The translations under genes and the position numbers were made by a program. From Candidatus Aenigmatarchaeota archaeon (GTDB lineage: Archaea > EX4484-52): a stretch of 22,677 bases of DNA. Positions 2,958 to 6,971 of this stretch are shown piece after piece. Under the pieces are notes generated by a model. It worked only from the letters and a program-made list of their open reading frames with translations. It had not been told where the DNA came from and ran no database searches. The DNA lies in assembly GCA_023137195.1 (NCBI GenBank), contig JAGLPV010000013.1, forward strand, positions 1 to 22,677. The letters are read 5' to 3'. Position 1 is the stretch's first letter, and the number at the start of each line of letters is the position of its first letter.

Positions 2958-3977
2958 ATGGCAAAACTAAATATTGGTATTTTTGGCGCAACAGGAGAAG
3001 TAGGTAAAGAGATTATTGATGTCCTCCATAAATTGGACTTTCCGGTAAAGGAATTATTTTTATATGCGGGTAAATCGGCAGGCAAAACAATTGAAACGCC
3101 GTATGGCGACATTGTCGTTCAAAAAGCAGATACTGCTGACTATTCTGAATTAGATATAGCTCTTTGGGCAATTGGAGGAGAATGGTCTTTAAAGAACTGG
3201 GAAAGAGCAAAAGATTCTAAATGCTATGTCATTGACAATTCTTCTGCTTTTAGGTATGATGATGAAATTCCCTTGATTGTCCCGGAAATCAATGGAGATT
3301 TATTGAAAGAGAATCCCTCAAGACTGATTTCAAATCCCAATTGTACTACATCTATTGCCGCCATTCCATTGCATATATTAAATCAGATAGCAGGGATTGA
3401 AAAAATAATTTTTACGACATATCAATCTGCAAGCGGTGCCGGCAATGGCGGAAGACAGGAATTGATTGAACAAAGCAAAAATTACATCAAAAATGAAAGA
3501 GTAGAAAATAATATGTTTCAACACCCTCTGCCTTTTAACGTGATTCCGCATATTGATAAATTTAGAGATAATGGATATACAAAAGAAGAGATGAAAACAG
3601 ATTGGGAGTCCAGAAAGATTTTAGATTTGGATGACAGCGTGAAAATCACCAGTGGCTGTGTAAGAGTGCCTGTCGAAAGATCTCATGCAGAGGATATTGT
3701 TGTTGAGACAAAAAATCCTGTTGATTTGAATGAATATCGGGGTGCTTTGCGTAAAGAGCCGATGCTAAAACTTTGCGATAATCCGGAGAATAATGAGTAT
3801 CCGATGCCTATTAACACTTCAGGGAATTATGTTGTTGAGGTTGGAAGAATAAGAAAGCCGGAAGTTTTTGCCAATGGCATCAGGATGTTTGTTTGCGGAG
3901 ATCAGCTTTTGAGAGGAGCTGCACTAAATGCTGTTTTAATAGCTAAAAAACTCTACGACTTGGGAAAGTTTGATTGA
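2958..3977 (+). CDS. asd: Aspartate-semialdehyde dehydrogenase (bacterial-type)
   Basis: GATGEVG, VIDNSSAFRYD, catalytic SNPNCTT, TYQSASGAG, YTKEEMK, CVRVPV, GDQLLRGAALNAV. ATG at 2958 is preferred over 2886 because a TATA-like TTTAAAAA lies at 2931-2938. Confidence 0.95.
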   Translation: MAKLNIGIFGATGEVGKEIIDVLHKLDFPVKELFLYAGKSAGKTIETPYGDIVVQKADTADYSELDIALWAIGGEWSLKNWERAKDSKCYVIDNSSAFRYDDEIPLIVPEINGDLLKENPSRLISNPNCTTSIAAIPLHILNQIAGIEKIIFTTYQSASGAGNGGRQELIEQSKNYIKNERVENNMFQHPLPFNVIPHIDKFRDNGYTKEEMKTDWESRKILDLDDSVKITSGCVRVPVERSHAEDIVVETKNPVDLNEYRGALRKEPMLKLCDNPENNEYPMPINTSGNYVVEVGRIRKPEVFANGIRMFVCGDQLLRGAALNAVLIAKKLYDLGKFD

Positions 3978-4379
3978 TGCTCTTTTTCCCTTGTTTACAG
4001 CAATTGTAAGTATGATAGATGATTCTGTATTTTGAAGGAATTAGAAGAAGATTAATTTAAGTGAAACTACCAGTAAAATTACAAGTATTGTTTTCCGGAA
4101 TAATTCAGGATGGATTTTTTTTACACAATGGCATCAGGATGTTTGTTTGCGGAGATCAGCTTTTGAGAGGAGCTGCACTAAATGCTGTTTTAATAGCTAA
4201 AAAACTCTACGACTTGGGGAAATTTGATTGATGCTCTTTTTCCCTTGTTTACAGCAATTGCAAGTACGATAGATGATTCTGTATTTTGAAGGAATTAGAA
4301 GAAGATTAATTTAAGTGAAACTACCAGTAAAATTACAATTATTGTTTTCCGGAATACTTCGGGATGGATTTTTTTTACA
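3872..4379. repeat. 254-bp tandem duplication (3872-4125 and 4126-4379)
   Basis: Both copies start CAATGGCATCAGGATGTTTG and end GGATTTTTTTTACA; I count 7 substitutions. The unit contains the 3' ends of asd and of the convergent TSUP gene. Confidence 0.97.
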
Positions 4380-4428
4380 AAATGCTTTCCGATGTATGCT
4401 CCTGAAAATGTGCAAACAATCAATCCTA

Positions 4429-4511
4429 CTAGGATTTAGAGAAGTTTTTGCGTAGCAAAAATTTGGGTGAACGAGTGCAACGGAGTGAACCTTTAAATTC
4501 TTGTTATAATC
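4429..4511 (-). other. attC-like recombination site
   Basis: Minus strand: GATTATAAC-AAGAA-TTTAAAG...CTCTAAA-TCCTA-G|. In the circularised cassette R' becomes GTTATAATC, the perfect complement of R''. Arm mismatches are mostly A/C on the top strand and G-T on the bottom strand. Confidence 0.7.
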
Positions 4512-4647
4512 TTCCGTTAGGAACGAGGAAAAGTCTGCAAGACGGTTTTTGACGAAGTCAAAAAATTCCGAAGAGTAATTTCTGTGGACGACTGTCCATC
4601 ATTGGAGCTATGCGACTTTAAAAAACAAGCTATCCAAGGGAAAAAAA

Positions 4648-5037
4648 TCACTCAATTAATTCAATCGAATCAATTTTTAAATATGTATTTGTTGTATAAT
4701 ATTTCATACCCGGAATATCACATTTTTCGTTTACTGGATGTTGAGAACCATCAAAATAATCTTCTTCACAAGAATATATGTCCACTTCACTAATTAAGTC
4801 GCCTTTAATTTTAACAGTTTTATTAAAATATGGTTTTACCTTGTTCCAATCTGAATAGTCAAAATTAAATCCTTGTGGGAATATTACTAAGCTTTCGATA
4901 CATTTTCCAGCACCGTTACATAAATTTCCATATATTTTTCCAGAGATTTCAATATCTTGAGTGATTATTTTTGAATTAGAGCAACCACTTATTAATATGG
5001 AAGAAATTAATAATAAAGCAATAATAAATTTTTTCAT
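4648..5037 (-). CDS. Hypothetical lipoprotein (cassette cargo)
   Basis: MKKFIIALLLISSILISG|C lipobox-like signal and four further Cys. Very AT-rich; own TATATAAA at 5069-5062. Confidence 0.75.
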   Translation of the reverse strand: MKKFIIALLLISSILISGCSNSKIITQDIEISGKIYGNLCNGAGKCIESLVIFPQGFNFDYSDWNKVKPYFNKTVKIKGDLISEVDIYSCEEDYFDGSQHPVNEKCDIPGMKYYTTNTYLKIDSIELIE

Positions 5038-5759
5038 GATATTAAATTATAATTTTATTTTTTTATATACTTTTTGTTTTTTTGCTCCATCTAATTCTAA
5101 GGAGCCCACAGAAATTATTGATTATAACAATTAGCAATGTATCCTCTTTGGAAATTAAGGAATATTTTGAGTAAATCACTGTTTTTAGGATATTCAATAA
5201 AACTGCTGTTGCGGACATAGTGGCAATAAAATTCTCTTTTCTCAATCCAAGATGATTCAGGAGCGCAGCTTTTATTGCACTTCCTGTACCGATTATTCCT
5301 GCAAAAGATCCGTATACTCCGCCAGCTGCTGTTATGGCGTAATTATTGAGTTTGATGTGCTTTGTGAGCTTGAAGTGGTCGTTGACAATATAGAGCAGGA
5401 TTATTGCGCCCAGTAATTTCTTGATGATTTCGCCAGGGGCATGAACCATTAAAAAGGAACCAATAACTACAAGCGGAACTGCTCCTGCCCATATCAGGAA
5501 AGTGATTTTCCAGTCGATGTGCTTCCTAAAAAACACTAGTTGGTTATATTTGATGCGATAAAAAAGATTGTGATTATTGCAATTGCTTTTTTTAAGGGGA
5601 GGACAAATGAGGAGAATGGGATTAATATTAATGCGCCGCCAAACCCGAAAGTGGCGGAGATTATCGCGGAGATGAAAGCCAATAGGAGGAAAAGTATTTC
5701 ATTTATCATGATTGTTTAATAGCAAACAACTTTTTTAAAATTTAGAACACCAGACAACC

Positions 5760-6971
5760 ATGGATACCAAAAAAGATTTCCCTTGCTTAAATCAAAAGAT
5801 AGGTGGATTGAGTCCTGTTTACTTGGACTCTGCCTGTATGTCATTGAAGCCAAGATGTGTGATTGACAAGATGGTTGAATATTACGAACAATACAGCGGG
5901 TGCGGTGGAAGGTCAGCGCATAAATTCTCATCCAGAACCACAGAAGAAGTAGCAAAGGCAAGACAACTGGTATCTGACTTTATCGGTGCAAAGAAGCCAG
6001 AGCAGGTCCTTTTCACAAAGAATACAACAGAATCTATCAATCTGGTCGCAAAGAGCTTTAAATTCAAGCCAACAGATATTGTGCTTACAACAGACAAGGA
6101 ACATAATTCCAATCTTGTTCCATGGCTTTTGATGAGTCGCAACAAGATTATCAGACACAAAACAATCTCATCAAAACCAGACGGAAGTTTTGACATTGAA
6201 GCATTTAGGGATTTGATGCAAAGGGAGAAAGACATAAAGATGGTTTCTATAAACCATGTCTCAAATATAGATGGGTATAAAAACCCAATAAAAGAGATTA
6301 TTGAAATTGCTCACGACAATAATGCGGTTGTGCTTCTAGATGGGGCGCAAAGTGTCCCTCACACAAAAATAGATGTTGAAAAAGAGGATATTGATTTCCT
6401 TGCCTTTTCAGGGCACAAGATGTGCGGACCTACAGGGACTGGTGTGTTGTATGGAAAGGAAGAGTTATTGAATGAGTTGAATCCGTTTATTGTCGGTGGA
6501 GATACTGTTGAAGATGTGGATGGAGACAAGATTACTTTTTTGGAGATTCCTGAAAAATTCGAGGCAGGGCTACAGGACTATGCTGGTATTATTGGACTAG
6601 GGGAAGCTGCAAGATACTTAAGTGATATTGGAATAGAAAAAGTAGAAAAACATGTCAATGATTTGAATATATATCTTGACGAGAAAATAAAACAGATTGA
6701 AAATGTTAAGATTATTGGTTCTTCTGACCCTAAAAGAAGAAGCGGGATTACTAATGCAGTTGTCGAGGGAATCAATTCTCATGAGATTGCAATGTACCTG
6801 GATGAAGTGAAAAATATAATGGTCCGCGATGGGGCTCACTGCGTGCATAGCTGGTACAATAAAACAAAAACAAAGGCATCTCTTAGGGCATCCTTGTATT
6901 TGTATAATGATAAATCAGATATTGATGCTTATGTTGAAGGGTTGAAGGAATATATCGAGCTGATAAGATAA
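5760..6971 (+). CDS. sufS: Cysteine desulfurase, SufS (group II) type
   Basis: VYLDSAC, FTKNTTESIN, EHNSN, DGAQS, PLP lysine motif FSGHKMCGPTGTG, KFEAG, catalytic RDGAHC. Confidence 0.93.
   Translation: MDTKKDFPCLNQKIGGLSPVYLDSACMSLKPRCVIDKMVEYYEQYSGCGGRSAHKFSSRTTEEVAKARQLVSDFIGAKKPEQVLFTKNTTESINLVAKSFKFKPTDIVLTTDKEHNSNLVPWLLMSRNKIIRHKTISSKPDGSFDIEAFRDLMQREKDIKMVSINHVSNIDGYKNPIKEIIEIAHDNNAVVLLDGAQSVPHTKIDVEKEDIDFLAFSGHKMCGPTGTGVLYGKEELLNELNPFIVGGDTVEDVDGDKITFLEIPEKFEAGLQDYAGIIGLGEAARYLSDIGIEKVEKHVNDLNIYLDEKIKQIENVKIIGSSDPKRRSGITNAVVEGINSHEIAMYLDEVKNIMVRDGAHCVHSWYNKTKTKASLRASLYLYNDKSDIDAYVEGLKEYIELIR

Follow-up and report, generated by a model that had tools for sequence, protein, structure and literature searches.

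What interrupts the TauE/SafE gene of a Candidatus Aenigmatarchaeota archaeon, and by which route did the interrupting DNA arrive? The question is raised by a stretch of 22,677 nucleotides (assembly GCA_023137195.1, contig JAGLPV010000013.1), called the window in what follows, where a TauE/SafE gene on the minus strand is cut by a segment of 699 bp at window 4429-5127(-). Integrons are the main cassette-capture machines of bacteria, and a first interpretation of the letters, the sequence-only reading, had taken the segment for a solo integron-like cassette. The analysis presented here leads us to conclude that window 4429-5127 is very probably a complete integron-type gene cassette, inserted site-specifically into TauE at a secondary, non-att G|T site. 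The source genome (G000) is 85% complete and was studied together with a phylum sample of 42 genomes, all of which are fragmented metagenome-assembled genomes (MAGs).

Interruption and restoration of the TauE gene

The TauE gene lies in three pieces on the minus strand, delimited by alignment to homologues. The N-terminal fragment (5539-5709) is covered by a Pfam match at window 5536-5709(-) to positions 2-50 of the PF01925 profile. The middle fragment (5128-5536), which ends ...LLIV at the insertion, is covered by a Pfam match at window 5063-5536(-) to profile positions 57-202 (E = 1e-15), and the C-terminal fragment (4295-4428), which starts GLIVC..., by a match at window 4295-4423(-) to positions 199-237, contiguous with the middle fragment across the break. 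A protein-collection search provided intact TauE homologues of 237-240 aa and up to 74% identity. Five of them, of 238-240 aa, were followed over the junction in the alignment with the three fragments: they continue as ...DIPLIIGLILCAFGGAY... at the place of ...EDTLLIV / GLIVCTFSGAY... in the window, with a gap of 0 and an overlap of 0. Because intact homologues align gaplessly over this point, removal of the 699 bases restores the frame exactly. The sequence-only reading had proposed that the segment splits TauE/SafE and that its excision restores the frame LIVGLIVC; the Pfam fragments and the gapless alignment bear this out, intact TSUP homologues running across the rejoined junction. It had also described an insert devoid of a transposase gene and of a target duplication, and both statements hold, the second within an ambiguity of 1-2 nt: nothing is shared but a G on the near side of the crossover and a T on its far side, and the crossover can therefore be placed within that interval.

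A chimeric frame of 157 aa running from TauE into the cassette is recorded on four contigs, the longest of 113,989 bp, which makes a one-off mis-assembly unlikely. The base-exact fit of the break to the crossover of the cassette family described below points in the same direction.

The target gene carries a second lesion, separate from the cassette: a frameshift near 5536-5545, where one base is apparently missing between the N-terminal and middle fragments. It may reflect genuine decay of the gene or may have arisen in assembly. With both the insertion and the frameshift, TauE is a pseudogene twice over. In the same genus, contigs G003:C32 and G001:C79 match the locus only at the neighbouring cysteine-desulfurase-like gene. 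Beside the insertion, a tandem duplication of 254 bp (3865-4118 / 4119-4372, 96% identical) takes in the 3' ends of TauE and of an aspartate-semialdehyde-dehydrogenase-like gene together with the spacer between these two genes. On its right side, 56 bp separate the duplication from the point of insertion.

Layout of the cassette

The limits of the cassette are fixed by the TauE alignment, by the family consensus of cassette ends and by comparison with a sibling cassette on contig C78 of genome G041. Read on the minus strand, this discrete unit presents in order TTATAATC-AAT, a clamp arm, a leader, an open reading frame (ORF) for a lipoprotein, the second clamp arm, an accessory domain, the boxes R'' and L'', variable hairpins, L', a spacer and a G. 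The left end TTATAATC (5120-5127) is the distal part of an R' box; it is preceded by the flanking G at window 5128 and followed by AAT, and the family consensus of cassette left ends is TTAnnnnCAAT. The right end reads ...CTCTAAATCCTAG / ...CTTCTCTAAATCCTAG, and its last G, at window 4429, was identified as the crossover base from the G041:C78 comparison.

Between these limits, the left arm of the outer clamp, TAATTTCTGTGG (5106-5117), forms a perfect 12-nt inverted repeat with the right arm, CCACAGAAATTA (4576-4587), and the two arms also pair in the fold of the circular form. The accessory domain (4512-4575), delineated by covariation and minimum-energy folding, starts ACTCTTCGG and comprises stem A, a T-rich hairpin, a hairpin with a TTGCA loop and a third hairpin. 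There follow the R'' box GATTATAAC (4503-4511), recognized in the family alignment and by inverted-repeat search, the spacer AAGAA (4498-4502) between R'' and L'', and the L'' box TTTAAAG (4491-4497), whose helix covaries in the family. The variable region holds the conserved T-rich hairpin TTTTTGC-TAC-GCAAAAA (4445-4461), which is helix 4 of the family structure. The L' box CTCTAAA (4435-4441), placed by the family alignment, and the spacer TCCTA (4430-4434) lead to the terminal G.

The flanking G together with TTATAATC complements the R'' box of the cassette, GATTATAAC, at 9/9 positions. An independent repeat search extended these R''/R' arms to 11 nt of 100% complementarity (4501-4511 / 5120-5130) and returned the clamp as a second inverted repeat of 12 nt and 100% (4576-4587 / 5106-5117). 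The left end, the single lipoprotein ORF and the foldback end that the sequence-only reading had assigned to a minus-strand element were all found in place. The foldback of ~90 nt that it described does exist, but the recombination site is far larger: with the clamp, which that reading did not contain, and the accessory domain, the folded site of this cassette measures ~190 nt and ends in G. The perfectly complementary ends (9/9 and 12/12) and the intact ORF suggest, as far as sequence can tell, that the insertion is recent.

A family of composite folded sites

The end of the cassette is not unique to the window. The last 230 nt of the insert recur on contigs C45 and C1 of the source genome and, more weakly, elsewhere (BLASTN and a small nhmmer profile), and window 4429-4578 has DNA matches in many of the group's genomes, 41 genomes having been searched. 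Twenty-five copies, the window copy being left out, were aligned around four helices: an R stem, an L stem and two inner hairpins. The structure was written by hand and tested by pair counts because RNAalifold recovered the T-rich hairpin alone from a plain MAFFT alignment, in which the L boxes were misaligned. In the 25 copies, 83.7% of the cells of this core are paired, against 35-45% when the structure is slid along the alignment. Cells changed on both sides number 116 against 38.9 in shuffles, and the covariation score is 0.374 against 0.132 in shuffled alignments, none of 500 shuffles scoring as high. The R helix displays AAC/GTT in 22-25 of the 25 copies, the L helix shows compensatory changes in seven of its ten pairs, and helix 4, the T-rich hairpin, is paired in 94.4% of cells with compensatory changes in five of six pairs. 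Imperfect inverted repeats of the R''-L''/L'-R' type, AAC...GTT triplets and conservation of structure over sequence, as in attC sites, are present in the family.

Two elements outside this core enlarge the site. The first is the clamp: the 12-15 nt that follow the left-end motif are an inverted repeat of the stretch just upstream of the module of the same cassette. The longest exact repeat averages 9.86 nt, against 6.21 nt with the preceding module and 6.16 nt when modules from elsewhere are taken. Of 56 cassettes, 23 have a repeat of 10 nt or more; that of the window cassette measures 12 nt. The second is the accessory domain of ~65 nt between the clamp and R'', built from an enclosing stem, a T-rich hairpin and a TTGCA-loop hairpin. 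In 19 copies, 91.7% of its cells are paired (at most 61% when slid), and its covariation score of 0.375, against 0.138 in shuffled alignments, was again reached in 0/500 shuffles. Composite sites in the family measure ~190-260 nt. Folded with DNA parameters, the site in its circular form nests the clamp, the accessory domain, the R stem, the L stem and an inner hairpin.

Covariation by itself fits RNA or DNA alike, and the module always lies downstream of ORFs and is rich in stable hairpins and T runs. It could accordingly be asked whether the family is a structured RNA carried behind many genes, such as a 3' untranslated region (UTR), a terminator or a small RNA, the break in TauE then being due to illegitimate or homologous recombination or to mis-assembly. 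The mismatches argue otherwise. In 105 model-aligned sites, 134 mismatches are A.C as seen on the top strand and would become G.T wobbles if the bottom strand folded, whereas G.T pairs of the top strand number 68. For the L stem taken separately, the top strand has 43 A.C against 8 G.T. From this asymmetry, folding of the bottom strand appears favoured and that of a sense-strand RNA disfavoured. The circular-form fold has an energy of -32.3 kcal/mol (z = -5.4) for the bottom strand and of -28.5 kcal/mol (z = -4.4) for the top strand. T-N-C loops closed by C-G, in the top-strand sense, occur in many hairpins; on the bottom strand they become G-N-A, and DNA mini-hairpins of the G-N-A type are unusually stable. 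Pairing partners flank the ORF and also face each other over cassette junctions, an arrangement that makes sense in circular DNA and does not in a 3' UTR. A search of Rfam with window 4200-5300 (E <= 10) returned no RNA family and a single chance match to a microRNA at E = 0.057. Considering also that the interruption is base-exact at the crossover of the family and that the junction-spanning ORF exists on four contigs, the structured RNA retains a very slight probability.

Two other candidates, a group II intron remnant and a TnpB/IscB guide-RNA scaffold, were discarded on a reading of the ends, on the Rfam search and on a search of the 85% complete genome that returned no TnpB.

The covariance model built from the 25-copy alignment, R1, detects the window copy in a search of the genome at window 4416-4515(-), with 50.5 bits and E = 4.5e-6, even though this copy has no native R'. 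The copy had been left out of the model, which keeps the match from being circular, and the match is not a product of chance. It is the only site that R1 finds in the window. The sequence-only reading had looked to similar foldbacks behind other ORFs, and these do occur, singly and in same-strand arrays: R1 detects 16 sites in the source genome, sites in 30 of the 42 genomes of the phylum and sites in all five of the genomes tested outside it, which belong to other DPANN-type archaea. Examples of same-strand clusters are six sites on G041:C78, five on each of G041:C162 and G041:C19, and four on each of G001:C82, G029:C16 and G029:C10. A second type of repeat stands beside ordinary modules at G000:C1:6300-6500, C1:690-835 and C45:33800-33940. 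It resembles a circularly permuted module, with an L'-like arm, ~40 nt, an R''-like TAAC, an L''-like arm, a hairpin and CCCAAATTTTT.

The crossover point

In integrons, recombination takes place between the G and the TT of R', and an integrated cassette consequently starts with the tail of its own R'. This phasing was examined in 58 pairs of successive same-strand sites, by comparing R' positions 4-9 of the first site (n) with the complement of R''. Agreement with R'' of site n+1 averages 4.71/6, with at least five matches in 41 of the 58 pairs. It falls to 2.93/6 with the site's own R'', 2.72/6 with sites of other loci and 3.02/6 with non-adjacent sites of the same array (permutation p <= 2e-4). 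At these 58 junctions, as in the window copy with its 9/9, the bases after the G belong to the next cassette. As the structure assigns what follows G|TT to the downstream unit, cutting and joining of cassettes take place exactly at this point, and each cassette closes into a circle with one continuous folded site.

The sibling cassette on G041:C78 leads to the same two bases. Its left 66 nt are 92.5% and its right 217 nt 86% identical to the window cassette, its ORF is different, and the similarity stops exactly at both crossovers. The crossover at G|TT claimed in the sequence-only reading is supported by both lines of evidence, and the segment is a cassette bounded by it.

These junctions also bear on the possibility that the segment is a non-autonomous transposable element of the IS200/IS605 type, of the IS110 type or of the miniature inverted-repeat kind, with a passenger gene. 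A lack of target duplication, subterminal hairpins and ends presumed to act single-stranded would suit such an element, and these are properties shared with IS200/IS605 elements. Here, however, the two ends are the halves of one site that is continuous only in the circle, and not a left and right pair of hairpins; the units are disposed in head-to-tail arrays with shared junction bases, and these arrays start at a tyrosine-recombinase gene. Profiles PF01797, PF01548 and PF07282 each gave 0 matches at E <= 0.001 in the source genome, and within its 85% completeness neither an IS200/IS605 TnpA, nor an IS110 transposase, nor a TnpB was found. An assignment of the ends to the IS110/IS200 families, which the sequence-only reading had kept in view, finds no support, and a transposable element has only the faintest chance of being the right explanation.

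Candidate integrases and attI-like platforms

If the segment is an integron-type cassette, which enzyme could move it? The source genome encodes two tyrosine recombinases, at C1:6574-7434 and at C45:31061-31969 (likely start 31121). They reach 257.7 and 224.5 bits with NF040815, the NCBIfam model of XerA, whose cut-off is 220; the other two of the four enzymes tested score 249.7 bits, over this cut-off, and 201.9 bits, under it. Among PDB entries, the C1 enzyme matches best with P. abyssi XerA (4a8e, E = 3e-50). The translation of the C1 enzyme contains the motifs GLRVSE, KGRKDR, HTLRHSF and GHSD...QIY, which we take to hold the catalytic residues R-K-H-R-H-Y.

With the integron-integrase model TIGR02249 (cut-off 265), the best score in the source genome is 115 bits per segment, and the four tested enzymes obtain 186.7-221.4 bits as whole proteins. 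The model matches the source-genome enzymes only at 1-180 and 237-315, and the interval ~181-236 is never matched in the 42 genomes. An alignment locates in the proteins an IntI-specific insert of ~40 aa that is present in 6/6 bacterial integrase-like proteins and in 0/9 archaeal ones. An integrase with the IntI-specific additional domain around patch III, which belongs to an integron in the IntegronFinder sense, was not found here, and the search for an IntI-type recombinase suggested by the sequence-only reading came back negative over the 42 genomes, both by the TIGR02249 cut-off and by the IntI insert.

The recombinase genes are nevertheless linked to the arrays. As we read the searches in the phylum, sites occur on the same contig as a recombinase gene or pseudogene in 11 cases, and in each of the 11 the gene stands on the 5' side of the array. 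The C1 enzyme then served to collect a wider set of 80 loci from species-representative genomes, of which 42 bear archaeal and 38 bacterial titles. All 49 matches of R1 fall in 22 of the 42 archaeal loci, and 43 of them are upstream of and divergent from the recombinase gene; R1 gave 0 matches in the 38 bacterial loci, among them integrase loci of Vibrio, Photobacterium and Shewanella, whose flanks were not checked for attC content. In 22 recombinase loci, a hairpin of 9-14 bp lies ~50 nt upstream of the gene and directly adjoins (N)ATG|TTAnnnnCAAT, with which the first cassette opens. The platform architecture of integrons, an integrase gene with an adjacent attI at the array start and in divergent orientation, is found, with the difference that the attI-like site, unlike attI1, is a hairpin. 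In the source genome the platform is on C1, with its attI-like hairpin at C1:6533-6562 and its crossover at 6529|6528; a 15-nt clamp arm pairs with sequence upstream of the site C1:856-964, 5.6 kb off. Three contigs, L060, L062 and L071, which are Pacearchaeota/Nanoarchaeota-labelled and 'uncultured archaeon' contigs, end at the attI-like crossover (...ATGTT) or within 1-4 nt after it. Such ends would be expected if the first cassette varies among the strains of a sample.

In phylogenetic trees, the C1-type enzymes form a clade, designated clade B, apart from the XerA clade proper to the phylum, both with an SH-aLRT of 99. Clade B comprises the C1 enzyme, those of G001:C50 and G003:C51, and enzymes of MAGs labelled Aenigmatarchaeota, Woesearchaeota, Pacearchaeota, Nanoarchaeota and Parvarchaeum. 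The XerA clade groups the C45 enzyme with the single recombinases of all sampled genomes that have no sites, and the remaining array-linked recombinases are distributed over two or three further clades. A placement of clade B as sister of the bacterial integron integrases, with a FastTree support of 92, was dropped because an IQ-TREE quick search left the deep nodes open.

Two kinds of palindrome were encountered in the course of this search. One, GGTATCAT-N10-ATGATACC, is attI-like, genus-specific and exact only at C45:33514-33539 and G001:C50:5363-5388; it recurs with two mismatches at C37:10120-10145, and the other listed matches, with two or three mismatches, look like chance. It was rejected as a phylum-wide attI motif, the attI-like sites of other genera sharing architecture and not sequence. 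The G001:C50 copy stands beside a clade-B recombinase, and the C45 and C37 copies have no adjacent recombinase; their cognate enzyme may be lost or unassembled. The other palindrome measures 26 bp (perfect or near-perfect, with 11-bp arms and a 4-nt centre) and lies at C45:31061-31086 (L001:3062-3087), 35 bp upstream of the C45 XerA gene. Similar ones are found on G002:C53 (L136) and G006:C25 (L143), in each case just upstream of a housekeeping-type XerA gene. The format of the C45 palindrome, compared with that of archaeal dif in the available part of PMC2958812, makes it a candidate dif site.

The second palindrome brings the housekeeping recombinase into consideration. Filamentous vibriophages use folded-strand mimicry of dif with XerCD, and in a parasitism of the IMEX type the cassette would have been moved by the dimer resolvase XerA (G000:C45:31121-31969), its folded R stem mimicking a dif arm. 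The recombinases are indeed members of the XerA family (of four enzymes tested, three exceed the NF040815 cut-off), and in the trees the C45 enzyme falls among single-copy recombinases from genomes without sites. A cassette array lies 1.5 kb downstream of the C45 gene, and the arms of the palindrome found upstream of that gene, as in G002 and G006, resemble the commonest cassette R box, TTATACGCAA. The insertion, however, is in TauE and the dif-like palindrome (C45:31061-31086) on another contig, so that the integration at dif typical of IMEX is not what is seen. In families f2 and f3, genomes that have only this type of XerA are mostly without sites (f2, 0/5 with sites; f3, 1/3), and hairpin attI-like sites and arrays adjoin recombinases of clade B or of the other array-linked clades, not those of the XerA clade. 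R boxes, moreover, show no constancy beyond GTT(A), whereas a dif arm is fixed. We therefore consider mobilization by the housekeeping XerA unlikely.

Leader, cargo and a possible exchange of ORFs

Between the left clamp arm and the ORF, the window cassette contains an upstream leader (5038-5105) with an A/T-rich, TATA-like stretch, which is shared with the cassette on G041:C78 and may function as a promoter. The ORF (4648-5037; 5037..4648 on the minus strand) is the sole one of the insert and encodes a predicted lipoprotein of 129 aa, whose N-terminus, by inspection, resembles a lipoprotein signal with a signal peptide ending LISGC. It has no Pfam family. A search among 5.8 billion proteins, with two of 15 candidates scored, gave the protein itself and one homologue of 76-77% identity. 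This closest homologue lies at L021 (G001:C36) 5737-6188, between ilvD-like and ilvE-like genes and in opposite orientation. No recognisable site stands beside it, and it may be an old insertion with a decayed site or the original chromosomal home of the gene. A more distant homologue, of 44% identity, is located on G035:C122 and is a cassette too, with R'' complementary at 9/9 and a clamp of 14/14; it comes first after the attI-like region.

The sibling on G041:C78 (L038 10937-12597) belongs to a different family of genomes and carries a lipoprotein-like ORF of ~410 aa that is unrelated to the 129-aa ORF. What the two cassettes share is a chassis, composed of the leader on the left and of the clamp, the accessory domain and the site on the right. 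The comparison hints at the replacement of ORFs within a conserved cassette frame.

Elsewhere in the family, the ORFs between sites are short and, by names read from their translations, include membrane and secreted proteins and a nucleotidyltransferase/HEPN-like pair. Reading of translations also indicates genes of the defence type: in the region C45:33600-40660 (L001:5600-12660), a 1199-aa protein, two DNA-methylase-like genes and a restriction-enzyme-like gene lie between sites, and C1:1-6200 encodes a helicase-like protein of 1602 aa; past the array, this contig finishes with a type I hsdM-like gene.

A proposed route for the insertion and its weak points

How could the cassette have reached TauE? 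It would first have been excised as a circle, one strand of which, presumably the bottom strand, would fold into the composite site. A clade-B recombinase, the C1 enzyme or a close relative, would then synapse the folded site with the duplex TTG|TAGG in TauE and exchange one strand pair between G|TT of the site and G|T of the target. Replication would finally resolve the intermediate and fix the insertion, in the manner of the bacterial attC x attI and attC x attG reactions as described in the available text of bioRxiv 2022.09.11.507474. The sequence-only reading had seen in this locus the footprint of an active IntI-like recombinase at a non-att site. The insertion of a cassette outside att sites stands; 'IntI-like' applies only loosely to a XerA-family clade, and 'active' would be a deduction from intact and perfectly complementary ends.

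Several observations weigh against this reconstruction. The target in TauE reads G|TA, not G|TT. The window copy, with its 50.5 bits, ranks in the lower half of the family, and it has a short L stem and a degenerate first inner hairpin. Base composition could bias the mismatch asymmetry from which the folding strand was deduced. No canonical integron integrase was found in the 42 genomes, TIGR02249 being over its cut-off in 0/42; the IQ-TREE quick search does not fix where clade B branches with respect to IntI and XerA, and at 85% completeness one cannot tell which of the recombinases of the source genome acted. The frameshift in TauE makes the insertion undatable, and the target gene may already have been dead. 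Finally, the protein collection yielded no near-identical uninterrupted TauE, the nearest intact homologue being 74% identical. A search for TauE in 41 genomes returned the own genome and one weak match of 25% identity, and 252 pattern matches in metagenome contigs include no TauE relative. As no empty-site allele was found, the restoration of the frame rests on homologues.

Relation to known systems

A site-specifically inserted integron-type cassette, as we read the segment, invites comparison with the integrons of bacteria. The similarities are extensive: cassettes that usually consist of one ORF and an imperfect palindromic site R''-L''...L'-R' with AAC/GTT triplets; a crossover at G|TT, the integrated cassette starting with its own R' tail; same-strand arrays beside a divergent tyrosine-recombinase gene with an adjoining att site; and a cargo of secreted proteins, toxin-antitoxin-like pairs and restriction-modification genes, as far as translations reveal. 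A preference for the bottom strand would be a further common trait. The differences concern the enzyme and its sites. The archaeal candidate integrase has no IntI-specific insert, and the attI-like site is a hairpin of 9-14 bp. Unlike bacterial attC, the archaeal site extends over ~190-260 nt, with an outer clamp stem and an accessory domain of ~65 nt between clamp and R'', and it possesses an asymmetric internal loop between the R and L stems.

Archaeal integrons have been reported before. The main text of Ghaly et al. 2022 (PMC9668308) describes them in 75 MAGs, DPANN lineages included, mostly as arrays lacking an integrase (CALINs). It mentions six IntIs, called by IntegronFinder and all endowed with the IntI-specific domain, excludes singleton attCs, and reports a cargo enriched in signal-peptide proteins, toxin-antitoxin and restriction-modification genes, as well as attC similarity at the order level. 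The arrays examined here resemble those in being located in archaeal MAGs, DPANN lineages among them, and mostly devoid of a detectable integrase, as well as in their cargo and in the order-level similarity of attC. A Xer-type integrase partner, a hairpin attI, the clamp and accessory domain and the insertion into a chromosomal gene set them apart from what that main text presents; its supplementary lists may include some of the same arrays.

The insertion itself finds its closest parallel in the work of Loot et al. (bioRxiv 10.1101/2022.09.11.507474), whose available text describes, in bacteria, single cassettes put by the integrase into ordinary duplex DNA outside att sites (SALIN/attG), with GWT as the minimal attG cleavage motif for IntI1. 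The window agrees with this pattern, with a single site, both recombinases on other contigs (C1 and C45) and a restored TauE frame. In the TauE insertion we see an archaeal equivalent of what is called a SALIN in bacteria, namely one attC site that has no integron integrase with it. It departs from the cases in the available text of that preprint by its archaeal host, its G|TA target and a presumed enzyme that is not IntI.

A last comparison is with elements that exploit Xer recombination. In CTX-type phages a folded single strand imitates a recombination site. The archaeal cassettes differ from Xer-exploiting elements by forming phased arrays beside a dedicated clade of paralogues with its own att site, by inserting elsewhere than at dif and by carrying single genes instead of phage or plasmid genomes. 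With Xer/dif, as presented in the available part of PMC2958812, they have in common XerA-family recombinases and an R box that resembles the arms of the dif-like palindrome beside the XerA gene.

Significance for archaeal integrons

A search of the literature, with supplements and subscription journals outside its reach, retrieved no description of a Xer-type integrase beside archaeal cassette arrays, nor of a hairpin attI or a composite cassette site. The elements that appear new are the clamp and accessory domain of the site, the hairpin attI and a candidate integrase clade without the IntI insert. The TauE locus is also the first base-exact chromosomal insertion of a cassette in an archaeon to which we can point.

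Archaeal integrons have been known only from software calls in MAGs, nearly all of them without integrase. The present locus provides an archaeal counterpart of the attG/SALIN route demonstrated experimentally in bacteria, and the platforms offer a concrete candidate enzyme and att site for 'orphan' archaeal arrays. The clamp and accessory domain may show how a Xer-type enzyme without the IntI insert recognises a folded strand, a matter that bears on how integron integrases arose from Xer-like recombinases. That one chassis holds unlike ORFs in two families bears on how cassettes originate, a problem still unsolved.

We regard it as evenly balanced whether DPANN-type archaea harbour a widespread and so far unrecognised class of integrons, equipped with a XerA-family integrase without the IntI domain, a hairpin attI and composite sites of ~200-260 nt. 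If they do, many of the archaeal integrase-less 'CALINs' would be complete platforms that are invisible to current software, and the TauE insertion would be a natural footprint of such a system on ordinary chromosomal DNA. The system might then reflect what integrons were at an ancestral, Xer-like stage, or it might have come to the same logic independently.

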